A DNA stretch of 26,122 nt from Pseudomonadota bacterium. GTDB lineage: Bacteria > Pseudomonadota > Alphaproteobacteria > Caulobacterales > Hyphomonadaceae. The notes under the pieces were generated by a model that was given only the letters and a program-made list of their open reading frames with translations, did not search any database and was not told the origin of the DNA. The number at the start of each line of letters is the position of its first letter. Position 1 is the first letter of the stretch. Shown here one piece after another: positions 2,004-23,487 of this stretch. The position numbers and the translations under genes are program-made. The DNA lies in contig JBCCBN010000023.1 of assembly GCA_039034035.1 (NCBI GenBank), positions 1 to 26,122 of the forward strand, written 5' to 3'.

Positions 2004-3173
2004 CTAGTCCCCCTCGCCAGGTCCGGACGCTGTATCGGCGCCCCGCCGGGCCAGGGTCACCAGATTGTTCACCAGCCCATCCAGCCCCTGCCCGGTCGCA
2101 GATGTCGTCACATCCAGCCGCCCGATCTTCTCGGTCAGCTTCTCCAGCGTCTCCAGCTCCTTCAGCCGCAGCAGCAGCGGATTGTTCTCCATCAACCGGG
2201 CCGTATTCAGCAGCGACCGCGTAGCGGCGGTCTCCTCGTGCCGGCGGATCAGATTCGCCTGCGCCTGTTTTTCCGCCTCCACCACCCGGTTCAGGATCTC
2301 CCGCATATCGCCGGGCAGGATCACATCCTTCAACCCGACGGACTGAACCTCGATGCCAAGATCGTCCAGCGCATCAAGCGACGCCACCGCATGGGTAAGT
2401 TCTCCATCCAGGCTGCCACGCGCATCCAGCAATCCACCCAGCGTCCGCCGCGCGACCGCATCCCGGATCGCAAACTGGATATAGCGATAGAGCGCGTCCT
2501 TAAGGTCCTTCGCCTGACCCGCTTTCTCGGGATCAGACACCCGCCAGAAGGCTGAGAGCGTTACCCGAACCGAGACCCGGTCCTCGGTCAGGATTTCCTG
2601 CGCAGTGACCTCAAGTCCCTGCCCACGCATATCAACCACAGTGAACGCCACCGCCTGCACCCCCGTCCAGGCGCCATGCCGACCTGGCCCGAGAACGGTG
2701 CGCAAGGCTCCATCCACATGCATCAACGCCTTGTGCCCGACCGGAACAGATTGAACCGAAACCAGTCCAGGCGCCACCCACTCGAATGCGGCAATGTCCT
2801 TTCCGGCGAGCATCGGGGCGTCAGCAATATCGACGATCTCTGCCGAATGTTCCGCCAAGGCCTGCCAGTACGCGCGCCTTTCCCGCGGTGGCACCACATC
2901 GATAACCCGCGTGCCGGCCCGGATGATCCCCACCGAAACCTCGCCCGGCTCCACCACGAGGAAATGTTTCGCCACCAGGTCGGGCCGGTCCCGCTCGATC
3001 GCCTCGAACCGCACGCCGGAATAAACGGGGTGGCGCACGTCCTGGATTTCCACGCGCGTCCGCGGTTCCCGGCCGATCCGATGCCGCCCCGGCCCAAGCA
3101 CGTCCCGAACCCGTCCATCCCGTATCAGCAGGGCCCGCTGGTGGTCTTCAATCGTCACGTGCCGCCGAAACAT
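2004..3173 (-). CDS. SPFH/Band-7 (stomatin/slipin-like) domain protein, no N-terminal TM segment
   Basis: The Band-7 core reads TAQEILTEDRVSVRVTLSAFWRVSDPEKA...YRYIQFAIRDAVARRTLGGLLDARGSLDGEL...LGIEVQSVGLKDVILPGDMREILNRVVEAEKQAQANLIRRHEETAA, followed by a coiled-coil tail. Start chosen at ATG 3173 (MFRRHV..., GGAG at -11). The longer ORF to 3200 would begin with TTG. Confidence 0.75.
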   Translation of the reverse strand: MFRRHVTIEDHQRALLIRDGRVRDVLGPGRHRIGREPRTRVEIQDVRHPVYSGVRFEAIERDRPDLVAKHFLVVEPGEVSVGIIRAGTRVIDVVPPRERRAYWQALAEHSAEIVDIADAPMLAGKDIAAFEWVAPGLVSVQSVPVGHKALMHVDGALRTVLGPGRHGAWTGVQAVAFTVVDMRGQGLEVTAQEILTEDRVSVRVTLSAFWRVSDPEKAGQAKDLKDALYRYIQFAIRDAVARRTLGGLLDARGSLDGELTHAVASLDALDDLGIEVQSVGLKDVILPGDMREILNRVVEAEKQAQANLIRRHEETAATRSLLNTARLMENNPLLLRLKELETLEKLTEKIGRLDVTTSATGQGLDGLVNNLVTLARRGADTASGPGEGD

Positions 3174-3507
3174 CGGGTGTTCTCCAGATAACAGATCCAA
3201 CGGCCTAGCCGATGCGGTTGCCCTTCGCCAAGCGGCAAAGAGAGAACCAGGTCCGCCTCAATCGAACGCCTGCGGGCCATCCGGCATCCACGGACGGGCA
3301 GCGGGGCCTTTCGACGATGCGTCGCCAGCCTTGGCCAACGCGGCACCGCGCCGGTTCCCCACCAGCCGACCATCTCCGCCAGCGGCACAAGGCCGGCGCT
3401 CAATTTGCCGCTCGATGCTGCCCGCTCCCGAAGGATTGGACCGCACCGTCGGCTGAGGGGACCCGGCCTCCCCGATCATTGGACGAGGTTTCTTTCGAAG
3501 ACCTCGG

Positions 3508-3580
3508 GAGTTGCTGAAGGAATCGAACCTTCTACCGTCAGATTAAGAGTCTGATGCTCTACCAGATGAGCTAAGCAACA
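3508..3580 (-). tRNA. tRNA-Lys (anticodon CUU)
   Basis: The reverse complement folds as a cloverleaf. D-arm GCTC/ATCTGGTA/GAGC. Anticodon stem TCAGA/TCTGA with loop CTCTTAA, so positions 34-36 are CTT. Variable loop CGGTA. T-arm GAAGG/TTCGATT/CCTTC. Acceptor TGTTGCT/AGCAACT has 6 base pairs plus a T:T mismatch at 1:72. Discriminator C. No CCA is encoded; the gene is followed by CCG. Confidence 0.8.
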
Positions 3581-4064: not shown

Positions 4065-4373
4065 TCATGTCGCCCCGCCTGGCCCCGTCGCCTCTTTCCC
4101 GGGCAGCCCGAGCCGATACACGCCCTTGAAACCGTCTGGATCAACCGCTCGCCCCTTTCGGTAGATCGCAATCGTTCCTGCCTTCGCGAGCCGGACCGCC
4201 TCGGCTCTCACTTCGGGCAAGACGCTGCGCCAGTTCGCCGGGCTAACGACCTTCGCCGCCTCGGTTGGACAGATCGTCTTTCCGATACCCCGGACCTCAA
4301 CCAGTTCAAGAATCGCTGCGTGCACCGGCTTGCGGGCAGGTTCGTCGCTGCTTTCAGCCATCGATTGCGGCAT
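4065..4373 (-). CDS. DUF3253 domain protein
   Basis: 102 aa. The segment HAAILELVEVRGIGKTICPTEAAKVV...WRSVLPEVRAEAVRLAKAGTIAIYRKGRAVDPDGFKGVYRLGLP matches the conserved DUF3253 pattern (GKTICPSE...W...V..AA..LA..G.I...QKG..VDP). Overlaps the upstream hydrolase gene by 20 nt. Confidence 0.65.
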   Translation of the reverse strand: MPQSMAESSDEPARKPVHAAILELVEVRGIGKTICPTEAAKVVSPANWRSVLPEVRAEAVRLAKAGTIAIYRKGRAVDPDGFKGVYRLGLPGKEATGPGGAT

Positions 4374-5589
4374 AGACCAATTGCTGGAATTGCGGCCGGA
4401 TCGGAAAACACCCTGAGGGGATCATTTGGGTCATCTGGATCGCGACCAGGTCTTCCACCGGATCGATCCAGAAGAAGGTGTTCGCCAGCCCGCCCCAACT
4501 GAACGTGCCCAGCGAACCGGGCGACAGCGTTTCGGCGACATCGACAACAACGCTGCCGCCCAGGCCAAAGCCGTTCCCCTCCATCCGCGCTTCGGAGAAG
4601 GTCCTGTCGCCCATTTCCTTGATCGTCTGATTTCCCGGTAGATGGTTCAGGGTCATGAATTCCACGGTCTTGGGCGACAGAAGGCGGACATCTCCTCGCC
4701 GGCCGCCATTCAAGAGGCACTGGCAGAACTTAAGGTAATCCCGCGGCGTCGATACCAACCCGCCACCGGCATTCAGCAAAGGCGGCTGGCTCCGATAGAG
4801 CCGGCTTTCCGGCCCTCCGCCATCGCTGAGACTGATCTCGCCCGTCTCGGGATCGCGGGCATAACAAGCCATGAGGCGCGACAGCTTGGCCTCGGGAACG
4901 AAGAAATCGGTGTCCGCCATGCCGAGCGGTCCGAAAATCCTTTCGCGGAAGAACGCATCGAGCGTCTTGCCCGACGCGACTTCGACAATCCGGCCCAGCA
5001 CATCTGTCGAGTGGCCATAATTCCAGCGCGTTCCGGGCGAGAAGACCAGCGGCAGGGCCGCGAGCCGGTTGCACATCGCTTCGAGGGTTTCATCCGGTCG
5101 GGCGATCTTGTGCTCGCGATAAAGCGCATCCACCTCGGTCTGCATGAGGAACCCATAGGTCAGCCCCGACGTGTGGGTGAAAAGATCCCGCACCTGCATG
5201 GATCGGTCGGCGGGGCGGGTCTTGATACCATCGGGTCCTGCGCCATCGAAGACTTCGGTGCCGGCAAAAGCGGGGATATAGCGCGAAACCTCGTGGTCGA
5301 GCCGGATTGCGCCTGCCTCGAACAACATCATCGCAGCGACGGAAGTGATCGGCTTGGTCATCGAATAGATGCGGAAAATCGTATCTGAGTCGATGGATTG
5401 ATTACCGCCCAGCTCAGTACAGCCCCGATAGGCCTCGTGAACCACCGTGCCTTCCCGTGCCACCAGAGTGGCCATGGCGGGGAGTTTGCCGCTGCTGATA
5501 TAGGCGGACGCGAAGAAGTCCGGGATGGCATCGAGCCGCGCCGCATCCATGTTCATTGCGGCCGGTGCCGCCCCGCTTAAATCGTCCAA
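4354..5589 (-). CDS. serine hydrolase, class-C beta-lactamase/esterase family (PBP4*-like)
   Basis: 411 aa. The active-site S-x-x-K lies within FRIYSMTKPITSVAAMMLFEAG. YGHSTDVLG and a WGG...G motif follow, as is typical of AmpC-related esterases/transpeptidases. The start could be the internal M (MNMDAARLD). Confidence 0.8.
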   Translation of the reverse strand: MDDLSGAAPAAMNMDAARLDAIPDFFASAYISSGKLPAMATLVAREGTVVHEAYRGCTELGGNQSIDSDTIFRIYSMTKPITSVAAMMLFEAGAIRLDHEVSRYIPAFAGTEVFDGAGPDGIKTRPADRSMQVRDLFTHTSGLTYGFLMQTEVDALYREHKIARPDETLEAMCNRLAALPLVFSPGTRWNYGHSTDVLGRIVEVASGKTLDAFFRERIFGPLGMADTDFFVPEAKLSRLMACYARDPETGEISLSDGGGPESRLYRSQPPLLNAGGGLVSTPRDYLKFCQCLLNGGRRGDVRLLSPKTVEFMTLNHLPGNQTIKEMGDRTFSEARMEGNGFGLGGSVVVDVAETLSPGSLGTFSWGGLANTFFWIDPVEDLVAIQMTQMIPSGCFPIRPQFQQLVYAAIDG

Positions 5590-11012: not shown

Positions 11013-13115
11013 TCAGCGGAACCGTTTCCGGATACCGAATGTGGCATTCAAAGGCTCACCTGGGAAATAGCGGTCATTGCCGAATGCGAAATCTGCCCGG
11101 TCGGCATACTCCAGATCGAAGAGGTTACGGACGAGCAAGAACCCGTCGAGCGTTTCGGTGATCGCGTGCTCCAGCCGGAGATGGGTCAGTGTGTGCCCGG
11201 GATACTGTCGCGAGCCGGACGGGTTTGACACGTATTCGCCGATGTATTCGAAGCGCAGCGACACATCTGTCCGGTCGTCATGGGCATAGGTCAGCGCCGC
11301 ATCGGCCAGCCATTCCGGCGCGGTGTCGATGGGCTCGCCCTGTTTGATCGCTTCGGACGCGTTGCCGACAGGACGGCTGAAATCATAGGTCTGGTCCGAC
11401 CAGGCGAGCGAGCCCGACAGGCGCAGTTCGCGTCCCATGACCAGCGTCGACTGCCAGAGCAGTCCATTGAGCGCCAGCTCCAGCCCCATATGGTCTGTCC
11501 GCCCATCGGGCACGTTCAGCCCATCGGCATCGCGGAAGAAGAAATTCTTCTTCTCCATCCGGTAGACCGCCGCGTCAAAGGCCAACTCACCGATCAGTCC
11601 CCGAATGCCCAACTCACCTGAATCAAGCGTCTCCGCTTCCACTTCTCCGGCGATCTGCTGCGATTGCAGCCGGTAGAGATCGCTCGCCTGGGGCGCCCGT
11701 TCGCCCCGCGCATAGTTGGCGTAGACGTCCACCGTCTCGCTCACTGCGAACACGGCGCCGAGCTTCGGCGTCAGCAGGGCGAACGAATCGGACCGGTCTT
11801 CGGCCACGTTGAACCGGCCATTGATCCCCGCCGGAATGTTGGTGGTATAGTCATAGTCATGGTTCTCGGCCCTGAGGCCGGCCAGCACGAACAGCCGGCC
11901 GGTCACCTGCCAGTCCACCTCGCCCCAAAGGGCATAGGCCTGGGTCTCGACATCGTAGTCATAATGGGTGCCGACCGGGAACCGCGTGTCGCCCGGGAAG
12001 AAGCCGAACGGATCGTCCTGGGTTTCCTTGAGAAACCCAGTCGCGATATCGGCATCGGCCCCGAGGGTTACCGACACGGCCTCCGACAGGGCGATGTCCT
12101 CCCACCGCGCCTGGACTCCGCCGCCGGTATGCCCGTTCTCCTCGAAGCCGCGATAGGGCAGGAAGTGCTGGCGGAAGCTCATGTTCTGGGTGCGGGCGAA
12201 GGGGGTCAGGCTGAGCGTGCCGGCGGCGGCGGCACGCTCAAACCGGATCGCAGCGCGGGCCGAGCGGGCGTCGCGGCCGGCTTCCGGATTGGGGTTTGAG
12301 CGGGCGATATCCCGGTCGCGATAGGCCTTGAAGCCCTGGATGAAGCCGGCGGTTTCCTGGTGCATGTTCTGCAGGCTGAGCCAGGCCGTCGCGTCCCAGC
12401 CGCCGAGCCGGCTCTCGCTCACCAGCGACAGTTTCTGCTGGTCAAGGCCAGTGAAGTCCCGCCAGCCCACATCCTTCTGGAGCGACACGCCGACGGTCGT
12501 GGATCGCCCGAGGTCGATAGTGCCTTCGCCCTTGTAGCGTTGGAGCGTCGATGCCGAGAGACGCAAGTCCGCACCGCCTTCTCGCCCGCCCGGCTCTGGA
12601 AGGAAGACGTTGATGAGGCCGTGGACAGCATTAGAGCCGAACTTCGCGCTGCCCGGCCCGCGCACCACTTCCACCGCAGTCGCCACCTCATGGTGCGGCT
12701 CGATGAGGCTGTTGACGTTTCCAAACGCCGGCGATCGGGTCGGCACGCCGTTTTCCAGGATCAGGAAGCTGCCCTGCCCCGCCCCGCCGGTCAGTACGGG
12801 TGAGCGGATGGCGATCAGGTGCTCCTGGCCGGAATTCATCTGGATGTTGACGCCCGGCAGCGTGTTCAGGAGTTCCGCCGGATGGTCGGCCGCCAGCGTG
12901 ATGACGGTCTCCGCGTCAATCACGGAATAGCTGCCCGGCTCCCCTTCCGCCCGGTCGCCATAGACAACGACCGGATCGTACACGATCACGCCCGAATCGG
13001 GCGCACTCTGCCGGCCCAGTGCCGCGTCCGCCCCTTCCGCATCACTCCCCTGCGCGCTCACCGACAAGGCGAACGCCGCCGCGCCGCCCACCAAGCTCAA
13101 GCCTCGCATACTCAA
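11013..13115 (-). CDS. TonB-dependent outer-membrane receptor
   Basis: 700 aa. Signal peptide MSMRGLSLVGGAAAFALSVSAQG. TonB-box/plug region reads VIVYDPVVVYGDR...SVIDAETV...LNTLPGVN...RSPVLTGGAGQGSFLILENGVP...VEVVRGPGSAKFGSNAVHGLINV, followed by a long beta-barrel. The C-terminus ...FGIRKRFR is slightly atypical because it is not a terminal aromatic. Its start lies 3 nt after the nupC stop. Confidence 0.85.
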   Translation of the reverse strand: MSMRGLSLVGGAAAFALSVSAQGSDAEGADAALGRQSAPDSGVIVYDPVVVYGDRAEGEPGSYSVIDAETVITLAADHPAELLNTLPGVNIQMNSGQEHLIAIRSPVLTGGAGQGSFLILENGVPTRSPAFGNVNSLIEPHHEVATAVEVVRGPGSAKFGSNAVHGLINVFLPEPGGREGGADLRLSASTLQRYKGEGTIDLGRSTTVGVSLQKDVGWRDFTGLDQQKLSLVSESRLGGWDATAWLSLQNMHQETAGFIQGFKAYRDRDIARSNPNPEAGRDARSARAAIRFERAAAAGTLSLTPFARTQNMSFRQHFLPYRGFEENGHTGGGVQARWEDIALSEAVSVTLGADADIATGFLKETQDDPFGFFPGDTRFPVGTHYDYDVETQAYALWGEVDWQVTGRLFVLAGLRAENHDYDYTTNIPAGINGRFNVAEDRSDSFALLTPKLGAVFAVSETVDVYANYARGERAPQASDLYRLQSQQIAGEVEAETLDSGELGIRGLIGELAFDAAVYRMEKKNFFFRDADGLNVPDGRTDHMGLELALNGLLWQSTLVMGRELRLSGSLAWSDQTYDFSRPVGNASEAIKQGEPIDTAPEWLADAALTYAHDDRTDVSLRFEYIGEYVSNPSGSRQYPGHTLTHLRLEHAITETLDGFLLVRNLFDLEYADRADFAFGNDRYFPGEPLNATFGIRKRFR

Positions 13116-14396: not shown

Positions 14397-14578
14397 ATGC
14401 CCGACTTCCCTCCAATACTGCCGAACGGACGCTAGACGGCCCCGGTGGAAAATGAAACAATCCTTTCACATTCGGAACACCGCCGCCTCGAAGGAGGGCA
14501 CTGCTTGACCGCCGGCTCACCCGCCCGCCTGGAAGGACTTCCTGGCGTTGACGCGAAACGATGCGGAGGACTGGTAGA

Positions 14579-14983
14579 ATGAGTATCGAGCGTGACCTGA
14601 GGGGTCACCACCCGGAAGATGACGCGATTGGCCTGAATGAGGGCCTTTTGCCGGAGGACCTTCAAGGGCTCACCACCGACGACATTGCCGGCATACTGGC
14701 CTCGACCGAGACGCTTGAGGCGCGCCATCAGCGCCTGGTGTCGATCCGTGACCAGCTTGAGACGCTGAGCCACACAGGCGGCGAAGATGTCGACGGCGCC
14801 GGTGCAGTCGGGACGCTGATAAGCGCCGTGGAGGGCGCGCTGCAGCGGCTTGAACATGGGCGGAGCCATCCAGGCGGGCGGTATGGCGCGGGGCTCGACC
14901 CGGACGGCAGGGCCGATACCCAATCGCCTGACGATTTGCTGGCTGATGATTGGCGCTTGTCGGTGGATCCGACCCATCTCTAG
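14579..14983 (+). CDS. hypothetical acidic protein
   Basis: Start at ATG 14579 (MSIERDL...), with a GGAGGA RBS 6 nt upstream. The Asp/Glu-rich sequence has no recognisable domain. The overlapping minus-strand ORF 14432..15097 is Arg-rich and was judged a shadow. Confidence 0.4.
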   Translation: MSIERDLRGHHPEDDAIGLNEGLLPEDLQGLTTDDIAGILASTETLEARHQRLVSIRDQLETLSHTGGEDVDGAGAVGTLISAVEGALQRLEHGRSHPGGRYGAGLDPDGRADTQSPDDLLADDWRLSVDPTHL

Positions 14984-15130: not shown

Positions 15131-15628
15131 TCAGTAGCTGTTCTTGATGAACATGACCTTCCGGATGATCGACACGGTCTCGTCTTCGAGGCCCATATAA
15201 TCAGAGATTTTCTTCAGAAAGGCTTCTTCGCTATCGCGGAACTTCCGGTCGGCCAGGACGATGTCCATGCAATGGGTATAGACCGACATGCGCATGTCGC
15301 GGGGGAGCACCCGGCAGGCCTCCTTGATAGAGCCTTCCCGGTCGGCCTTCACGCGATCGATCACGGTCTGGTTGACCTGCGCCAGGCGCTCGGGGGTAAG
15401 CCGCTTCATGGTTCGGCAGCGCCGGACAAGGGCGGCGATTTCCTGTCGCTCTTCGGCGGCCATTTCGCCGTCGGCAAAAGCGGCTTCCAGGACCAGGCAC
15501 AAGAACGCTTCCGGCATGCTCCAATCGGAGTCGCTGTCGTCGAACATCCGCTCCGCTTCGTCCAGATCGGGGAGTTCGTTGGGTTCAGGGTCACCCGCGG
15601 GGAAAAGGATCCTCATTTCGGTCGTCAT
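15131..15628 (-). CDS. TerB-like (tellurite-resistance TerB family) domain protein
   Basis: 165 aa, all-helical. FLCLVLEAAFADGEMAAEERQEIAAL...ACRVLPRDMRMSVYTHCMDIVLADRKFRDSEEAFLKKISDYMGL matches the TerB pattern (aDG.v...E ... and a second half with D/E). GGGAG RBS. Confidence 0.6.
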   Translation of the reverse strand: MTTEMRILFPAGDPEPNELPDLDEAERMFDDSDSDWSMPEAFLCLVLEAAFADGEMAAEERQEIAALVRRCRTMKRLTPERLAQVNQTVIDRVKADREGSIKEACRVLPRDMRMSVYTHCMDIVLADRKFRDSEEAFLKKISDYMGLEDETVSIIRKVMFIKNSY

Positions 15629-15755
15629 CTTACACTCCCAATGCAGACCTGGCCCGCATTCGCCAAGGTCTCATCTCTACCTATAATTCTGTCACAGGCC
15701 CACGCAATGTTCCACTCGGTTGAACGGATGCGATAATAGCGGGAGCCCGTATCGC

Positions 15756-16361
15756 CTAACAATTCTCAGGATCCGTACATGGGCGCGGCTGGGGACCCGC
15801 ACGGCGCGCTAGGCTATCACGTTGCCGTTGCAACGCTGCCAAGTGATTTCGGAGACTGGTCTGCGCTGTGCCAAGCTCGAGGATGAGCGTTTCGCGATTC
15901 CAATCAGGGGTTTCTGGCGGGGTAGCGTCCCGTTGCGAGATCGAAGCCCCTCGAGAGCGGCGTTCGCGCACCACATCCGCGATTTCGGCCTTCTTCGCTT
16001 CGATATCCTGTTCGAGCCCTTCAATCTCGGCGACGCCGCGTGAGATTTCGCCGAGCCCGGCAAGCTGGTCGACCAATCGGTCGCGTTCGTCGGTGATGCG
16101 CTCCAACTCTCTGACTTCGGCCTCAAGCCGGATCTTGTCCTGTTCGAGGCTGCTGACATTCCCCGACAAGAAGAACCATGTGGCGCCGGCTGCGAGGGCG
16201 GCAACCAGCAGGGAGAGCAAGATGGCGGATGCAGTCGAAAGGCCCACGCGCTTATACTCTATTTCGGCTTCGTGTGAGGGGTGGGGAAACAGGGTTCGGG
16301 CTTCAACCACCATGGGCGGCGGCCTGTCCTGGGGATCTACGTCGTAATCACTGGACGCCAT
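15756..16361 (-). CDS. hypothetical membrane-anchored coiled-coil protein
   Basis: 201 aa. Pro-rich N-terminus, one TM helix (ILLSLLVAALAAGATWFFL), then heptad-like LEQDKIRLEAEVRELERITDERDRLVDQLAGL...IEGLEQDIEAKKAEIADVVRERR. Strong GGAGGG RBS. Confidence 0.6.
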   Translation of the reverse strand: MASSDYDVDPQDRPPPMVVEARTLFPHPSHEAEIEYKRVGLSTASAILLSLLVAALAAGATWFFLSGNVSSLEQDKIRLEAEVRELERITDERDRLVDQLAGLGEISRGVAEIEGLEQDIEAKKAEIADVVRERRSRGASISQRDATPPETPDWNRETLILELGTAQTSLRNHLAALQRQRDSLARRAGPQPRPCTDPENC

Positions 16362-16425
16362 TCTTGCCCTCCATGCTGGGTCGTGCCCGTCGTTCTGCCG
16401 TCATCTTGTCACCCATGGTCGTAGC

Positions 16426-18525
16426 CTACGGCGTGCACAGGCGCGCGCTGTAAGTATTGAGGAAATTCTGAACATCGCGATAGTCCCGGCCATCGTCGGG
16501 GAGATTGAAATCGTAGTCGCCATTGCAGGCCAGCGAGGCTTCCTTGAGGTAGATGAGGATTTTCTCGGTGCCGACGGGTGGCAGGGTTTCGGCGCGGGGC
16601 CAGTCAAAATCGGTCACATCCTCATCGGTCACCGTACTGAGGGCGAAGTCGAGATTACTCCGCGCAATCTGGCGGGCGGCGCGCGCACCGGAAACGCTGA
16701 GCCGCTGGGCCCGGCGCATCTGGAACATTGCCTGTAGGAGGAGTTCGTCGGGGGATGTGCCGAGGGAGCATCGCGGCTCATCGCTGTCATTCGTCCAGCG
16801 CCCCCCGGCACGGATGCGCGCAAGGCAGGCGATTCGGGTGTAGCTCTCATCAGAGCGGCGGAGGTCAGCAGCCCGGTCGGCGTTCTCTACCGCGGTGGAA
16901 AACCGGTTTGAGAGCGCATTCACGGAGCTGAGCAGACTATAGGCCTCGGCCTGAAACGTGGGCGCATCAACAAAGGTCTGGGTGGCGTTTGAGCCTGTCA
17001 GCGCTGCAAGCGTGGCCGCCGCCGCGGTCTCATCGCCATGCTTGAACTGATGGCCGGCAAGTTTGAGCACGGGCTTGGCGGACCGGGGCGTTTCGGCGCG
17101 GGCGGCAAGGAGGATGTCGCGCACCTCATCGGGGTTGCGGCCGGCCGCATCGGCTGCGCTGGCCTGACGTAACAGAGCGTCCGATAGTGCGTTGGGCGAC
17201 GCTTCTGGATCGGCTCTCAACTGAGCCACGGCTTGGTTGAACTTGTCGGCCGCGCAGGCCCAATCCCGCTTGCGCTCGCAGGCGCTGGCCCAGCCGAGCA
17301 GGTCTTCCGCTTCACCGGAGAGGCTGGCGGCTTGCTCATAATCGAGTAGCGCCCGGTCGAACGGATCGAGGCCACCCGTGATGTCACGCGCGTCGCCAAT
17401 GCTGGCGAGGGCTTCCCATGTGCCGGCGCGTCCTCGGAAGGCTGCGGCCTGGGCTAGCGGTTCTGTGTCGGCAGCGAGGGCGCGGGAGAAATACTCTTCG
17501 GCCTGGCGCAGGAGAGCCGCATCCTCATCGTCGGTTCCGAGCCGGAGATGGGCATTGCCAAGGCCGGAAAGCGCACGGGCGCTTTGGCGGTTTGCCGCGA
17601 GCGCGCGGGTATAAAGCTGGATCGCGCCGCGCTCGTTCCCGTCTTCGGCGAGCGCGGTGTCGGCCAGCTCTACAGCATAGCTTTCCAGCCGCTCACGGGC
17701 ATCAGCCTTGAGTGGTCCATTGATCGGGCTGTTGACCACGGTTTCATACGCATCAATGGCATCCTGACCATCGAGCGCTCCATCTCGAGCGCGGTGGAGA
17801 TCGCCGAGCAGCAGATGGAAACGGTCATATTGTTCACCGCGGGTTCCGTCTTCTAGGCGCGCATAGGGCTGGGCGACCTGTCGGTCCTGGCTCATTCGGT
17901 CGATTGCGAGGCTAAGGCAGGTCTCTCGGCGGGTGCAGGTGGCGCGGCGAGGGTCGAGGCGGGCAGTCTCGACCGTCTCGGAAAGGGACGTCAAGGCTGT
18001 GGCATAGGCAAGGACGCGGTCGAGGCGAAAGGCCTGGGTCTGAGCCGTCCACGCGCGGATCGCTCGCTCGCGTTCGGCCTCACTCCGCACGGTCCGGAGG
18101 GTCTCGGGCACCGTATTCAGCCAGCCATCGGTGTTCTGGAGGTTGTCGAATGAGGCGCGCAGCAAGGCGACCGATGCCTGCAGGGGTTCAATGGAGGGCT
18201 GGCCGCTGCTCATGGACGCGGCGTCAAGATAAGCGCGGCCGGCATGGTAGTAGGCGACGCCGCGCTCCCTGACGCGCAAGTTTGTATCATTGTCTGCCAC
18301 GCTTTCACAGCGCCGGGCCAGATCGAGCGCGTCGGCAGCGCCTGACGCACGCGGAGCGGCGAGGTCGATACAACTTGCGCTAGCGGTGGATATGGGTGCT
18401 GGACCGGGTGTGGGCGCTGTCGTCGTGGTCTCGCATGCGGCCAGCGAAACCAGGGAAATTGCTGCAAACACCCGTGAAAGGAACGACCTGTCCATGGTCA
18501 AAGCTACACTCCCCGAACGCGCCAT
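16426..18525 (-). CDS. hypothetical TPR-like helical-repeat lipoprotein
   Basis: 699 aa. Lipoprotein signal with lipobox (…FAAISLVSLAAC/ETTTT) when read from the internal start MDRSFLS (18495). The remainder is Ala/Leu/Arg-rich helical-repeat sequence with several TPR-like A-x-x-x-Y/L-A spacings and multiple Cys. No catalytic motif recognised. Confidence 0.65.
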   Translation of the reverse strand: MARSGSVALTMDRSFLSRVFAAISLVSLAACETTTTAPTPGPAPISTASASCIDLAAPRASGAADALDLARRCESVADNDTNLRVRERGVAYYHAGRAYLDAASMSSGQPSIEPLQASVALLRASFDNLQNTDGWLNTVPETLRTVRSEAERERAIRAWTAQTQAFRLDRVLAYATALTSLSETVETARLDPRRATCTRRETCLSLAIDRMSQDRQVAQPYARLEDGTRGEQYDRFHLLLGDLHRARDGALDGQDAIDAYETVVNSPINGPLKADARERLESYAVELADTALAEDGNERGAIQLYTRALAANRQSARALSGLGNAHLRLGTDDEDAALLRQAEEYFSRALAADTEPLAQAAAFRGRAGTWEALASIGDARDITGGLDPFDRALLDYEQAASLSGEAEDLLGWASACERKRDWACAADKFNQAVAQLRADPEASPNALSDALLRQASAADAAGRNPDEVRDILLAARAETPRSAKPVLKLAGHQFKHGDETAAAATLAALTGSNATQTFVDAPTFQAEAYSLLSSVNALSNRFSTAVENADRAADLRRSDESYTRIACLARIRAGGRWTNDSDEPRCSLGTSPDELLLQAMFQMRRAQRLSVSGARAARQIARSNLDFALSTVTDEDVTDFDWPRAETLPPVGTEKILIYLKEASLACNGDYDFNLPDDGRDYRDVQNFLNTYSARLCTP

Positions 18526-18861: not shown

Positions 18862-19056
18862 ATGCAACCCACTGCACGTGAAGCTGCCTTGGCCGAAATT
18901 GCCGCCAGCCTGAATTCGGACGCCCCTGACCCTTATGAAAAGATCCTGTTCGGGCACTTGGAAGAGAGCGTCACCGAACCGGCGCGTGAACCCGCTGGTA
19001 ACCCGGTCGTCGGCGAGCGCCGGACAGCGGTGCCTGGTGATCGAGAAGCGACTTGA
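18862..19056 (+). CDS. hypothetical small protein (64 aa)
   Basis: ATG preceded by an aaaaggaaaatcc RBS-like purine tract. Third-position GC bias is coding-like. The acidic sequence MQPTAREAALAEIAASLNSDAPDPYEKILFGHLEES... has no known domain. Convergent on the 485-aa gene. Confidence 0.3.
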   Translation: MQPTAREAALAEIAASLNSDAPDPYEKILFGHLEESVTEPAREPAGNPVVGERRTAVPGDREAT

Positions 19057-19062
19057 GGCGAC

Positions 19063-20520
19063 CTAGGTGCAATTGGGGGTGAAGTCGGGGTGCTCTGATT
19101 GCAGGAGGGCGGCGGCCAACTCGTAGTGGGGCGGTTTGAGCAGCTTGCGGATCTCGCACATGTTGAACTCGTCGGCCTGGAACAGCGCCACATTGCGGCG
19201 GGCGTCTTCAGCCGCGCCGGCGACGCCAATCTCGCGGGCCACAAAAGCGCGCACCAGTTCGTTCCAGGCGAATAGACCGGTCCGCTCGACCGCCTCGGCA
19301 TTGGCAAAGGCGCCGCTGAAGTCATCATCAAGGAGATAGGCGAAGCTGATATTCTCGCCCGACCCGCTCACCTGGTTCTCGGTTTGCTGGAGTTGGCGGC
19401 GCAAGTCGATGGCCCGCTGCAGGCAGGCGTGCATGAGGCGTGTGCGATCAGAACCATAGGTGATTTCGCCCGTGGGACAGGCATCGCGCGCCAAGTCGTG
19501 GGCGGAGTTGACCGACTGGTATCCGCCCGCATCGGCGGCGATCAGGACCGTTCCAAGACCGTGGAAGGCATTCATCTCAAGGGTGAGCAGGGCCTCCCTA
19601 CGGGCCGCACTTCCGCCGGCATCATCGGTGGATACCGCTTCGCTGCGTTGAACGGCCAGGCTGTAGTTCCGGAGCGCTTCTTCCACCAGCCCCTGTTTTC
19701 GAGCGCATTGTCCGCGCCAGTAAAGCTGCTGGGGGCCAAGCGTCTCTAGTGCGCCGATGGCGTCGGTGGCAGCGAAAAGGGCGTCACAGTCTTCAAGCGC
19801 ATAGTTGGACCGAGGTGAGGAGGCATTCTCGAACGCGATCCAGGCCAGCCCGGTCTTGGCGATACCGGCGAGACCGGGCGCCGACTGAACGGACGTGAAG
19901 GCGTCCTGGGCCTCGCGGAGGGTTTGGGGCAGACCGGTTGCACCACGAGGAATTTCGTCTCCGCCGCGCTCCCATTCCATCAAGAGGAGGACGCCATTGA
20001 ACAGCGCGGTCTGGGATGCAGTTGCGGTGGTCCCGGTTGGATCAGCCGCCTCGATACTCTGTTCGAGCCTTTGTTCGCTGGCAAGGGATCGGACACCGCG
20101 CTCGAGGAAGTCGATAGAGGCTTCGAGGCCGCTATCGATCGATACGGACTGGTCGCCGACCTGAGTGATGGAGAGCATTTCGGCATAGTTGCGGCGGATC
20201 GAGGCTTCCTGCCCGGCAATCCGGTTACTGAGATCGGAGGCGAGGATCCGGGTTTCGAAAGCGCGGCGTTCGAGACGCTCGGAATCCTCGGCCAGGGTCT
20301 GGGCGACGAAGTAATAATAAGCGCCCAAGGCCGCGGACATGGCGACGACGAGGAACAACGCGCTGAACCCAGCTACGAGAATGCCGCGCATGCCGCGTTG
20401 CTCAGCGGCGACCAGGGCAATGAGTTCTGAATCTTCTTTTTCCGTCACTGCGGCCCCTCTCAACCGACAACCGATCCGATCATATCCATCCAGATGCTCC
20501 GCTTGGACTTGCTGGCGCAT
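19063..20520 (-). CDS. hypothetical membrane-anchored protein (N-terminal signal-anchor plus ~440-aa soluble domain)
   Basis: 485 aa. One TM (GILVAGFSALFLVVAMSAALGAYYYFVAQ) follows a short basic N-terminal tail. The remainder is helical and Ala/Leu-rich with 5 Cys. An alternative start is ATG 20391. It overlaps the upstream 2-TM gene by 61 nt if read from 20520. Confidence 0.6.
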   Translation of the reverse strand: MRQQVQAEHLDGYDRIGCRLRGAAVTEKEDSELIALVAAEQRGMRGILVAGFSALFLVVAMSAALGAYYYFVAQTLAEDSERLERRAFETRILASDLSNRIAGQEASIRRNYAEMLSITQVGDQSVSIDSGLEASIDFLERGVRSLASEQRLEQSIEAADPTGTTATASQTALFNGVLLLMEWERGGDEIPRGATGLPQTLREAQDAFTSVQSAPGLAGIAKTGLAWIAFENASSPRSNYALEDCDALFAATDAIGALETLGPQQLYWRGQCARKQGLVEEALRNYSLAVQRSEAVSTDDAGGSAARREALLTLEMNAFHGLGTVLIAADAGGYQSVNSAHDLARDACPTGEITYGSDRTRLMHACLQRAIDLRRQLQQTENQVSGSGENISFAYLLDDDFSGAFANAEAVERTGLFAWNELVRAFVAREIGVAGAAEDARRNVALFQADEFNMCEIRKLLKPPHYELAAALLQSEHPDFTPNCT

Positions 20521-20936
20521 TGCAGCTGGCTGACGAAGCCGGCAAACAGCTTCATCCGGCCCGCCCGCGCCGCATAGAGCGATCGGTCGATGGAATTGAC
20601 GCAGTTATGGGCAGCGCACCAACTGGCGAAGAAGCCGACCATTGCTGCGGAAATCGGGGCCAGGATCTGCATCAGCGTGAGCCAGATACCGCTCGATCCA
20701 CCGCCGGACGAATTGGCGAACAAGTACGCAATTGTGGCCATGGCGCCGAGCAGGAGCACGAAACTGAAGACGAACAATCCAAAGCAGATCGAGCGGATCC
20801 GGCAATGGTGCCGTTTCTCGTTCTCGAGGATGTTCGCAAGAACGTCCACGTCACCCGTTTCGATTGATGATTCGATCATCTGGGATGTCCCGCGTGCCAG
20901 CGTTGCGACGTTAGTGGCAGACCCATCGGCGCGCAA
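20460..20936 (-). CDS. hypothetical small inner-membrane protein (2 TM helices)
   Basis: 158 aa. TM1 CFGLFVFSFVLLLGAMATIAYLF. A Gly/Ser linker. TM2 LTLMQILAPISAAMVGFFASWCAA. Start is ambiguous: TTG at 20936 or ATG at 20879 (MIESSIE). Local GC (~57%) is lower than the surrounding genes. Confidence 0.5.
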   Translation of the reverse strand: MRADGSATNVATLARGTSQMIESSIETGDVDVLANILENEKRHHCRIRSICFGLFVFSFVLLLGAMATIAYLFANSSGGGSSGIWLTLMQILAPISAAMVGFFASWCAAHNCVNSIDRSLYAARAGRMKLFAGFVSQLQCASKSKRSIWMDMIGSVVG

Positions 20937-21047: not shown

Positions 21048-22460
21048 ATGGACCCGACCTCGCCCGCCCCTACCCCCGCGTCCTCGTCGCCTCGCGAAAC
21101 CGCGCCGCTAAGCCGGTTACGGACGCTGGCACTGGCCTGGCCGATCGTGCTGGCGCAGGCCGCGACGGCGACCACCAGCACGGTCGATACGCTGGTCATG
21201 GGCCGATATGGCAGCGCAGAGGCGCTGGGCGCGGTTGGGGTCGCGTCGGTGGCAACGCTGTTCCTGTTCTGGGCGTTCGGCTTCCTGCGGATGGCGACGA
21301 CTGGGCTGGCAGCCCAGGCCGATGGCGCCGGCGATGAGGGTGAGGTTGGGGCGGTCCTGATTAGGGGGTTGTTGCTGGGCGCGGGGCTTGGCGTAACCAT
21401 CATCATCGTGTTCCCGATCTTTCGCTGGGGCGCATTGGCCGCGTTCGCGGCGGACCCGGCGGTCGAGACCCTTGCGAGGGGATATTTCAATGCCCGGATC
21501 TGGGGAGCGCCGGCCGCGCTGATGGGGTATGCAGTGACCGGATGGCTGATCGGGACCGGGCGGACGCGCAGCCTGCTTGCTTTTCAAGTCGTGTTGAACG
21601 CGGTCAATGCGGGCCTGGATGTATGGTTTGTAGCGGGGCTGGACCTGGGTCCGGCGGGGATCGGTGCAGGGACGGCGATTGCGGAGTGGGTGGCGCTGGC
21701 CTTCGGGCTGGCGCTGGTGCGGACGTCGCTGCGGCGGACTGAAGGCCTGTTCGACAGGGCCAGGCTGATGGCCCTGTTTGCGGCCAATCGGGACATCATG
21801 ATCCGCACGCTCGCCTTGCTGTTCGCTTTTGCATGGTTTGTGAACGCAGGCGCCCGGGTCGGAACCGCTGCGCTCGCGGGCAATGAGGTGTTGCGCCAGT
21901 TCGTGACGGTGATGGCGTTCGTGCTGGACGCGTTTGCGTTTGTCGCCGAGAAGGAAGCGGGAGCGGCGTATGGTGCGCGCGACCGGGAACGGTTCCTGCG
22001 GGCTGTGCGGATCACTAGCGAGCTGTCCTTTGCGTTCGCATTGGGTTTCAGCGCGCTCTTCCTACTGCTTGGCGGGCCTGTGATCGAAGCGGTGGTGAGC
22101 GATGCTGACGCTCGTGCGGCGGCACTGACCTATGTGCCGGCTATGGCCGCGGTGCCGCTGGTGGGTTGGATGGCCTACCAGTTGGACGGCATCTTCATTG
22201 GCGCAACGCGCGGGCATGCCTTGCGGAATGCGGGCGTGGCGGCGACGGTGCTGTATGTGGCCACCGATAGCCTGCTGCGCCCGGCATTTGGCAATTGGGG
22301 GGTCTGGGCGGCATTCCTGGCTATGTTTGCCTATCGGGCCGGCGGGTTGCTGGTCTACTGGCCTGGATTATTGGCGGATGTCAGCGAAGATCAGCGCCCA
22401 CCGCCGCCGCCACCGTCTCGAAGCCGTCAGAGCGGAGCGCGCCAGCCAGTTCGAGATTGA
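21048..22460 (+). CDS. MATE-family efflux transporter (DinF/NorM-like)
   Basis: 470 aa with ~12 TM segments. LALAWPIVLAQAATATTSTVDTLVMGRYGSAEALGAVGVAS opens repeat unit 1. ALAGNEVLRQFVTVMAFVLDAFAFVAEKEAGAAYGAR opens repeat unit 2. The last ~30 residues (…EDQRPPPPPPSRSR…) look non-native and overlap pyrD on the other strand. Confidence 0.8.
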   Translation: MDPTSPAPTPASSSPRETAPLSRLRTLALAWPIVLAQAATATTSTVDTLVMGRYGSAEALGAVGVASVATLFLFWAFGFLRMATTGLAAQADGAGDEGEVGAVLIRGLLLGAGLGVTIIIVFPIFRWGALAAFAADPAVETLARGYFNARIWGAPAALMGYAVTGWLIGTGRTRSLLAFQVVLNAVNAGLDVWFVAGLDLGPAGIGAGTAIAEWVALAFGLALVRTSLRRTEGLFDRARLMALFAANRDIMIRTLALLFAFAWFVNAGARVGTAALAGNEVLRQFVTVMAFVLDAFAFVAEKEAGAAYGARDRERFLRAVRITSELSFAFALGFSALFLLLGGPVIEAVVSDADARAAALTYVPAMAAVPLVGWMAYQLDGIFIGATRGHALRNAGVAATVLYVATDSLLRPAFGNWGVWAAFLAMFAYRAGGLLVYWPGLLADVSEDQRPPPPPPSRSRQSGARQPVRD

Positions 22461-23487
22461 TCGTCTCGACAAGGGCCGGTCCGCCATAGACCAACGCGGT
22501 ATAGAGCTGGACCGCGTGGGCACCGGCGCGGATCTTCCGGTAGGCGTCCAGGCCGTTGGCAATACCCCCCGCGCCGATCAGGTCGAACCGGCCATCGAGG
22601 CGGCGGGCGAATGCGCGAAGCACATCCGTGGAGGCCGCCATCAGCGGCGCGCCGGAGAGGCCGCCCTGCTCGAACCGGTCCTTTGCCTTCAGCGTTTCGG
22701 GCCGCTCAAGCGTGGTGTTGGAGATAATCAGCCCCGATAACCAGCCGCCGTCGGTCTTGAGCACCGAAACAATGTCGTCGATCGCAGTTTCGTCCAGGTC
22801 GGGGGCGAGTTTGAGCAAAACTGGGCGCTTGCCGGGGGCATGCGATTGGTCGCCCCACATGGACAGGAAGGTGTGATGGGCGGTGGCCCTGGCCGCTTCA
22901 CAGCGGACCAGCAGCGCGGATAGGGCTTCGGGGTCCTGCAGGCCTCGCAGCCCCGGCGTGTTGGGCGAGGAGATATTGATCGTGATGTAGTCGCAATGGG
23001 CATAAACAGCCTCAATCCCAGTGGCGTAGTCGGCGATCCGGTCCTCGGCAGTCTTGTTGGCCCCGACATTGGCGCCGAGAATGCCGGGCCTGCGGGGCGA
23101 AGCGGACAGGTTGGCGACGAAGGCGTCGAGCCCGCGATTGTTGAAGCCCATCCGGTTGATGACGGCGCGATCTTCCTCGAGGCGGAAGAGGCGCGGCTTG
23201 AAATTGCCCGGTTGCGGGCGGGGGGTCACGGTCCCGCATTCGACAAAGCCGAAGCCCATCTGGAACATGGGGGTGAATACATCAGCATTCTTGTCGAACC
23301 CGGCGGCTAGCCCGACGGGATTGGGCAGGTGTAGGCCCGAGCGCGGCAGGGTGATGGCCGTGGACCATTGCGCCGGATCGGCGCGCGAGACGCCGAGCCC
23401 GGCCTTCAACGCCCGGATGGTTGCGATGTGGGCAGCTTCGGGTGGCAGCCGCCGGACGGCCGATAATCCGAGATCATTGAGCGCCAT
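22381..23487 (-). CDS. pyrD: dihydroorotate dehydrogenase (quinone), class 2
   Basis: 368 aa. Contains LPNPVGLAAGFDKNADVFTPMFQMGFGFVECGTVTPRPQPGNFKPRLFRLEEDRAVINRMGFNN..., ...YITINISSPNTPGLRGLQ..., ...LIGAGGIANGLDAYRKIRAGAHAVQLYTALVYGGP. The N-terminal membrane-association helix is typical of class 2. Confidence 0.95.
   Translation of the reverse strand: MALNDLGLSAVRRLPPEAAHIATIRALKAGLGVSRADPAQWSTAITLPRSGLHLPNPVGLAAGFDKNADVFTPMFQMGFGFVECGTVTPRPQPGNFKPRLFRLEEDRAVINRMGFNNRGLDAFVANLSASPRRPGILGANVGANKTAEDRIADYATGIEAVYAHCDYITINISSPNTPGLRGLQDPEALSALLVRCEAARATAHHTFLSMWGDQSHAPGKRPVLLKLAPDLDETAIDDIVSVLKTDGGWLSGLIISNTTLERPETLKAKDRFEQGGLSGAPLMAASTDVLRAFARRLDGRFDLIGAGGIANGLDAYRKIRAGAHAVQLYTALVYGGPALVETINLELAGALRSDGFETVAAAVGADLR

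Follow-up and report, generated by a model that had tools for sequence, protein, structure and literature searches.

What do three adjacent, co-directional genes do when their products are labelled 'hypothetical', 'coiled-coil domain-containing' or 'TerB family' in the databases? The question is raised by a locus on contig JBCCBN010000023.1 of the metagenome-assembled Hyphomonadaceae genome GCA_039034035.1, of which a stretch of 26,122 nucleotides, hereafter the window, was analysed (contig locus tags AAF253_042xx). The locus encodes a predicted periplasmic tetratricopeptide repeat (TPR) protein, a single-pass membrane protein with a predicted coiled coil and a small TerB-domain protein. TerB is widespread and recurs in stress and phage-defence contexts, and an earlier reading of the DNA letters alone (the sequence-only reading) had proposed that the three products form a signalling or stress-sensing envelope complex. 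The genes are found here to be a conserved operon and a functionally linked unit, which belongs to Henriciella (Hyphomonadaceae) and to related uncultured marine Alphaproteobacteria. As to function, we give a probability of about 0.5 to a trans-membrane TPR/coiled-coil/TerB complex in which a TerB module close to the membrane is coupled to the state of the periplasm or envelope. The three genes, in their order of transcription, are as follows.

16426 to 18525, minus strand: gene for the predicted TPR-solenoid lipoprotein, an open reading frame (ORF) of 699 amino acids (aa), or 689 aa from the probable ATG start at 18495
15756 to 16361, minus strand: gene for the predicted bitopic coiled-coil protein of 201 aa, based on the ORF, hydropathy, cysteine positions and an alignment of 10 lineages
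15131 to 15628, minus strand: gene for the TerB-domain protein of 165 aa, based on the ORF and a Pfam TerB match

All three ORFs have the codon usage and high third-position G+C content (GC3) of the host, in frame 0 only, as do the housekeeping genes of the contig. ORFs and coding signal together bear out the sequence-only reading in its account of three co-directional minus-strand genes, spaced by 64 nt between the TPR and coiled-coil genes and by 127 nt between the coiled-coil and TerB genes. The strong ribosome-binding sites (RBSs) it had claimed for the two shorter genes are also present, GGAGGG lying 5 nt ahead of the ATG of the 201-aa gene and GGGAG 6 nt ahead of that of the TerB gene. 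For the TPR gene the second ATG, at 18495, is the likelier start; it is the one annotated by NCBI, whose protein is 689 aa long, and it gives the lipoprotein signal MDRSFLSRVFAAISLVSLAAC. An Rfam scan detected no RNA element near the operon.

Conservation of the three-gene operon

Homologues of the TPR protein were sought exhaustively with HMMER among 1.84 billion cluster representatives, and 24 relatives were returned, about a dozen of them full length (619-744 aa, 25-39% identity). A word-indexed homology search gave self-hits only for each of the three proteins of the trio, a result explained by the sensitivity of that search and not by orphan status of the proteins. The same search missed homologues as near as 55% identity (the Henriciella TerB), and at least the H. 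aquimarina coiled-coil protein is in the same collection.

Loci were retrieved from species-representative genomes by sequence pattern, for which a four-sequence alignment (A3) worked, the alignments of 12 (A1) and eight (A2) sequences being too divergent for the purpose. Pattern-based retrieval found the trio in Henriciella aquimarina LMG 24711 (L002) and Henriciella pelagia LA220 (L003), in which the next gene on the strand of the TPR gene encodes a bitopic protein (206 and 228 aa, respectively) and the one after it a TerB protein (172 and 176 aa). Exact look-ups of the HMMER matches added seven further independent lineages (L007, L011, L013, L014, L016, L017 and L018), each with a TPR gene (619-744 aa) leading into genes for a 196-225-aa protein and a 160-181-aa TerB protein. 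The full trio is present in 10 independent lineages, namely the window, H. aquimarina, H. pelagia and the seven metagenomic ones, with identical order and strand throughout and with intergenic gaps of 28-69 nt and 33-137 nt. Four partial loci agree with this order; the partial contigs L004 and L006 hold the C-terminus of the coiled-coil protein and then TerB, and L010 holds the TPR gene and then the N-terminus of the coiled-coil protein. At least three Henriciella-like loci are also among the matches listed in a TerB scan of metagenomes.

The genes that flank the trio differ in every non-Henriciella lineage. In the window they encode NupC and a MATE transporter, and in the other lineages MgtE and an ABC-F ATPase, DUF481, hydrogenase maturation genes, ribosomal protein L31 and an MFS transporter, or MerR and GlmU. 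The three genes are therefore considered functionally linked, because their order is kept in 10 lineages despite these differing flanks. Synteny in related genomes was the gene-neighbourhood check on which the sequence-only reading had staked its proposal, and the 10 full trios in differing surroundings supply it. Its other stake was the lack of remote homology to well-characterised pathways, and searches of Pfam, NCBIfam, PADLOC, PHROGs, PDB profiles and folds assign the proteins to none.

The Henriciella trios have flanking genes of their own. Upstream lies a gene for a 377-388-aa protein with faint similarity to baeRF (release-factor-like) proteins (L002 6599-7732, L003 5252-6418), and downstream one for a 393-aa protein (L002 about 11280-12480, L003 11562-12743), which we tentatively take, from its sequence, to be a CoxE-like VWA protein. 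Neither neighbour is found near the trio of the window. L011 (5704-6764) and L016 (525-1547) share an opposite-strand pair upstream of the trio, which encodes a 105-aa secreted protein with a C-terminal transmembrane (TM) segment and, as its companion, a lipoprotein of 233-243 aa that is weakly similar to Peptidase_C39.

Predicted products and a candidate membrane complex

The large protein is predicted to be a secreted, disulfide-stabilised TPR solenoid that is lipid-anchored in the window organism. Its signal peptide ends in the lipobox L-A-A-C (...SLVSL-A-A-C), in agreement with the pattern [LVI][ASTVI][GAS]C used to define one. Eleven cysteines are present, that of the lipobox and ten more in five sequential pairs, and four of the five pairs are kept across lineages; in the family alignment the cysteines at query positions 73, 567, 667 and 697 are invariant and that at 203 is nearly so. 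The best-conserved part of the family is the C-terminal stretch of about 140 residues. By sequence, only residues 292-354 or thereabouts are TPR-like, below Pfam thresholds. The AlphaFold2 model, computed from an alignment of 12 family members, is confident, with a mean predicted local distance difference test score (pLDDT) of 86 and a predicted template modelling score (pTM) of 0.73, and is wholly alpha-helical save for a small hairpin in the C-terminal part. A fold search with this model matches TPR folds, and the model has the tandem helix-turn-helix units and right-handed superhelix of TPR repeats. Because the model is confident and all-alpha, the protein can be read as a peptide-binding-type TPR scaffold, and the model gives no sign of a specific activity. 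The lipobox is found in only about half of the family, the other members carrying ordinary secretion signals; L011, L014, P0005 and P0011, for example, have AxA-type signal peptidase I sites and no lipobox. Since about half of the family lacks it, the family trait would be a secreted periplasmic TPR protein and not a lipoprotein. The 'lipoprotein scaffold' of the sequence-only reading thus stands for the window protein, with its lipobox and TPR solenoid, but not for the family, about half of which is of the signal peptidase I type.

The 201-aa protein appears to be a bitopic inner-membrane protein with a conserved short tail in the cytoplasm and, in the periplasm, a variable coiled coil of about 130 aa. 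A single TM segment is predicted at about residues 47-65, and the lysine and arginine residues ahead of it indicate an N-in/C-out orientation. The C-terminal 133 residues are acidic and helix-prone, have a periodicity of 3.5 residues that is significant (z=3.4), and close with C-x5-C. A PDB profile search with this protein matches coiled-coil proteins only, including, weakly, the TM/coiled-coil region of PilN. Two motifs are conserved in the alignments of 10 lineages: P.V..DRT(L/I)F..P in the cytoplasmic tail just ahead of the TM segment, kept in 10/10 lineages (alignment A8), and a short P.W...A...L near the C-terminus.

The 165-aa protein matches Pfam TerB (PF05099) with 45.3 bits against a cut-off of 24.4 (E=1.3e-11), over residues 41-155 and positions 3-116 of the 118 in the model. 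It contains no hydrophobic segment, TM segment or signal peptide and is predicted to be a well-conserved cytoplasmic TerB-domain protein. Its PHROG match is phrog_632, 'tellurite resistance', and its profile gives a weak match in the PDB to 2ou3, a COG3793 TerB (E=0.24). A single-sequence AlphaFold2 prediction is all-helical, with low confidence (pLDDT 55). Two other assignments were rejected, namely DjlA (NCBIfam DjlA, 15.9 bits against a cut-off of 162, with no TM segment and no DnaJ match) and DUF533/YebE (PF04391, 19.8 bits against a cut-off of 29.6, with no hydrophobic segment). In the literature, TerB domains count as membrane-associated or amphitropic modules whose molecular function is unknown (PMC11709261; bioRxiv 10.1101/2025.09.30.679545). 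None of the three proteins has an enzyme-family match in Pfam or NCBIfam, in keeping with the absence of a catalytic signature already remarked upon from the sequence.

Together the three products probably build a membrane-spanning complex. The predicted topologies of the TPR, bitopic and TerB proteins agree with the distribution over periplasm, inner membrane and cytoplasm that had been proposed for them. The TPR solenoid would bind the periplasmic coiled coil or the C-terminal segment of the bitopic protein, as suggested by the co-variation of the two proteins (below) and by the peptide-binding fold. The conserved cytoplasmic tail of the bitopic protein would dock TerB at the inner face of the membrane, a contact proposed because both are conserved and always co-encoded, and one that may resemble the binding of PilM by the short tail of PilN. 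In this way the complex could link the state of the periplasm or envelope to a TerB module on the cytoplasmic side of the inner membrane, and in many lineages it may work with a second membrane pair, a protein with two TM segments (2-TM) and a second bitopic, TPR-like protein. Envelope monitoring or homeostasis is favoured over classic tellurite resistance.

The component types (TerB, TPR and coiled coil) and TerB-centred membrane modules are already known; new are two protein families in the trio and two more in the linked pair. The combination, held by the sequence-only reading to be undescribed, is indeed absent from Pfam, NCBIfam, PADLOC and PHROGs, and none was found in the literature. 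TerB gains here a simple and constant set of partners with a clear predicted topology (periplasmic TPR, bitopic coiled coil, cytoplasmic TerB), and the conserved candidate docking motif, together with the cultivable hosts H. aquimarina LMG 24711 and H. pelagia LA220, makes its membrane partner testable. The importance of the system is limited by the rarity and narrow taxonomy of the family.

Divergence, a second gene pair and rival explanations

The three genes diverge at very different rates. Mean identity over seven lineages is 56% for TerB (45-80%), 28% for the TPR protein and 26% for the coiled-coil protein; across 10 lineages TerB identity is 44-80%. Distance matrices of the 10 lineages correlate strongly between the TPR and coiled-coil proteins (Mantel r=0.80, p=2e-4) and more weakly with that of TerB (r=0.31 for TPR, r=0.44 for the coiled coil), all of these values being inflated by shared phylogeny and by the co-inheritance of adjacent genes. 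Between H. aquimarina and H. pelagia, the flanks and TerB have 70-90% DNA identity, which falls to about 0.4-0.5 from the start of the TPR gene to the end of the coiled-coil gene (L002 7796-10675 compared with L003). This divergent block has a sharp boundary at the start of TerB and shows a small rise in identity over the coiled-coil N-terminus. Allele types are also combined differently in related loci: in L010 the neighbouring membrane protein is 88% identical to that of H. pelagia and the TPR protein only 38%, and in L006 TerB is nearest to that of H. pelagia (89%) and the coiled-coil C-terminus is of the H. aquimarina type (...PPCSDPENC).

The ratio of nonsynonymous to synonymous substitution (dN/dS) is about 0.10 for both periplasmic genes, as estimated from small counts in the near-identical H. 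pelagia-like strains L003 and L005. This ratio places both genes under constraint and argues against continuous positive selection as the cause of their divergence, which looks more as if old allele classes had been exchanged; the rapid drift usual in repeat and coiled-coil sequences is a further contributor. A bolder proposal, which we regard as doubtful, is that of an envelope recognition system, not described before, in which recombination between strains swaps an allele-like periplasmic cassette (the TPR solenoid and the periplasmic part of the coiled-coil protein) and TerB and the docking tail remain constant. TerB would then be a general adaptor close to the membrane for polymorphic periplasmic sensors of phages, bacteriocins or kin/non-kin cues. 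Periplasmic proteins do not usually evolve in this way, and cassette-like divergence beside a TerB conserved to 80% would, if confirmed, be out of the ordinary for them.

The unit probably extends beyond the trio. A second gene pair lies upstream of it in the window, on the same strand.

20460 to 20879, minus strand: gene for a predicted inner-membrane protein of 139 aa with two TM segments (NCBI AAF253_04240), the first of the pair
19063 to 20448, minus strand: gene for a predicted bitopic protein of 461 aa (NCBI AAF253_04235), with a GTG start and a GAGGGG RBS

The 461-aa gene begins 11 nt past the 139-aa gene, and between the pair and the trio lie a 64-aa plus-strand ORF and about 335 nt of non-coding DNA. 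The 139-aa protein has a conserved C-terminal amphipathic segment; the 461-aa protein has a TM segment, a periplasmic coiled coil, a helical TPR-like domain whose TPR matches are weak and sub-threshold, and three cysteine pairs. Elsewhere a homologue of the small protein is encoded directly after TerB (78% identity in L007, 67% in L018, 45% in L011 and 41% in the truncated L016), and a homologue of the 461-aa protein is the last gene of five-gene clusters (57% in L007, 56% in L018 and 42% in L011). In L017 the region upstream holds a divergent pair with matching sizes and architecture, of which the big protein is weakly homologous (29% over 139 aa). The pair is linked to the trio in about six lineages and is probably part of the same system, because the same five families occur in three different arrangements. 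Pfam, NCBIfam, PADLOC, PHROG and PDB profile searches gave nothing specific for the partners in the trio or for the second pair, and the 461-aa protein was rejected as a paralogue of the TPR lipoprotein (nothing by BLASTP; hhalign probability 1.5%). L017 also encodes a second TerB paralogue (4083-4589, plus strand), which is 61% identical to the TerB of the operon and adjoins the 486-aa gene of the divergent pair; given this paralogue, TerB may serve both sub-modules.

The divergent cassette invites a reading in terms of defence, in which the operon would be an anti-phage or anti-invader, TerB-type membrane surveillance system comparable to Dionysus, the variable cassette recognising an invader cue, TerB transmitting it and the 2-TM protein acting as effector. 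TerB occurs in the validated systems Dionysus (DinB), Shango (SngA) and Bunzi (BnzA) (bioRxiv 10.1101/2025.09.30.679545), the TPR and coiled-coil genes form a sharply bounded divergent block within Henriciella, allele types in L006 and L010 do not follow the similarities of TerB and of the neighbouring genes, and the small 2-TM protein is linked in six lineages. The surroundings of the operon speak otherwise, however. The housekeeping flanks of the window and the related loci contain no integrases, transposases or known defence genes, codon usage is native, and six Henriciella-like loci share their flanks (the presumed CoxE-like VWA gene downstream and either the baeRF-like gene or that of a 162-203-aa membrane protein upstream), so that the position is fixed. 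PADLOC v2, run on the window proteins and homologues from five loci, gives only a faint PDC-S48 candidate (13-21 bits, TerB only), and the TerB subfamily was not found in a scan of viral contigs. A dN/dS of about 0.1 is not elevated, and the putative 2-TM effector is missing beside the Henriciella trios. No periplasmic TPR protein is known to act as a defence sensor, which also counts against this explanation. With no PADLOC system match, no island or mobile context and a stable position in Henriciella, the association of TerB with phage defence that the sequence-only reading had cited does not extend to the operon, and we consider a defence function unlikely.

The purifying selection would also fit a structural or assembly part of the envelope, in which the coiled coil crosses the periplasm, the TPR protein scaffolds in the manner of Tol-Pal/CpoB, LpoA or pilotins and TerB is an anchor or chaperone-like partner. 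The periplasmic helical region of about 130 residues could reach roughly 19 nm, and a disulfide-stabilised solenoid in a context that is core-genome-like within Henriciella is also consistent with this role. Yet no gene for a peptidoglycan-binding, OmpA-like, secretin, synthase or transporter protein is consistently adjacent in the related loci, the lipid anchor is not conserved, a housekeeping structural part would not usually have alleles that differ so extremely between species of one genus, and the family is confined to very few lineages; on balance this explanation seems slightly less probable than one of defence. The Pfam TerB and PHROG 'tellurite resistance' matches could suggest a fragment of a classical tellurite-resistance (Ter) cluster, with TerB as its core and the other two genes incidental, but this is most improbable, as neither the window nor the related loci contain a homologue of TerC, TerD/TerE/TerZ, TerA or TelA and both partners are kept with TerB in 10/10 lineages and so are not incidental. 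Chance adjacency of three unrelated lineage-specific genes was at first suggested by the self-hits of the word-indexed search, which made them look like orphans. It has the least claim to belief and is ruled out by the synteny data, the HMMER search having uncovered a family in which every locus long enough carries the same three genes in order.

The complex that couples envelope state to TerB, which remains the preferred reading, also has points against it. The encoded proteins contain no kinase, sigma/anti-sigma, DNA-binding or other output domain, so that 'sensing' is left with no identified readout and the signalling or stress-sensing part of the original proposal is not directly supported; signalling and defence roles of the operon are inferences. 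The structure models are of single proteins (TPR and TerB), and the contacts between proteins that we propose are inferred only. TPR and coiled-coil sequences are generally fast-diverging, making low identity alone weak evidence, and to this is added the inflation of the Mantel values noted above. The second pair is not obligatory, as the trios of Henriciella, L013 and L014 have no such pair within 7-8 kb. Finally, the family is rare, and its 24 representatives in 1.84 billion form a small and taxonomically narrow sample.

Other genes of the window and comparison with known systems

Several further features of the window lie around the operon. The 64-aa plus-strand ORF between the pair and the trio (18862-19056) is a gene call in the Logan copy of the contig and has no family match and no homologue in the related loci. 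An acidic 140-aa ORF (14561-14983, plus strand), which converges on the TerB gene, occupies part of the 734-nt gap ahead of nupC; it has a coding signal (codon log-likelihood ratio +0.17, GC3 0.71) and likewise neither a family match nor a homologue in the related loci. The ORFs of the MATE transporter (21048-22460, plus strand) and of pyrD (22381-23487, minus strand) are convergent, with 3' ends that overlap by 80 nt (22381-22460). A tRNA-Lys (CTT) gene at 3506-3580 (minus strand), downstream of an SPFH/Band 7 gene (2004-3200), is the sole RNA gene detected in the window.

Among known systems, the TerB of terZABCDE (COG3793) shares with the 165-aa protein two 'A-D-G/R ... E-E' pseudo-repeats. 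The protein described here differs in being stand-alone with a conserved 35-residue N-terminal extension and in having a bitopic coiled-coil protein and a periplasmic TPR protein as its constant partners. The anti-jumbo-phage system Dionysus consists of DinA (a TM segment and a MAEBL-like region), DinB (TerB) and DinC, an alpha pore-former with four TM segments (bioRxiv 10.1101/2025.09.30.679545). Compared by its published description, it is likewise a multi-gene membrane module around a small TerB protein and a single-pass membrane protein, and a small multi-TM protein accompanies the present operon in six lineages. Dionysus, however, occurs in Gamma- and Betaproteobacteria and includes no TPR protein in the periplasm. 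Its effector is ClyA-like in fold and has four TM segments, against two in the small protein described here, and the context of the present operon is not island-like.

The Rcs relay of envelope stress includes the outer-membrane lipoprotein RcsF, the inner-membrane protein IgaA and DjlA, which has a TerB-like domain (PMC11709261). Its logic is similar, with a periplasmic lipoprotein, an inner-membrane protein and a membrane-proximal cytoplasmic TerB-like domain, but this is an analogy only, as the operon encodes no homologue of RcsF or IgaA, lacks a J-domain and comes with no phosphorelay genes. The type IV pilus alignment complex (PilM-PilN-PilO-PilP, with PilF/PilW) offers a bitopic protein, likewise N-in, that uses a short conserved tail to bind the cytoplasmic product of a neighbouring gene, as is proposed here, together with a periplasmic coiled coil and a TPR lipoprotein in the same envelope system. 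The present operon differs in having no PilM-like ATPase-fold protein, no PilO, PilP or secretin and no nearby pilus genes; the match to PilN is at the coiled-coil/TM level only, and the TPR protein is three times larger than PilF/PilW. Envelope TPR scaffolds such as CpoB/YbgF, LpoA, NlpI, BamD and LapB are, like the large protein described here, all-helical and sometimes lipid-anchored, and CpoB also combines a coiled coil with TPR; the match to LapB is sub-threshold (18.9 bits against a cut-off of 363). What sets the present family apart from these scaffolds is its mature size of about 650 aa, its four or five predicted disulfides and a conserved C-terminal cap that is specific to it.

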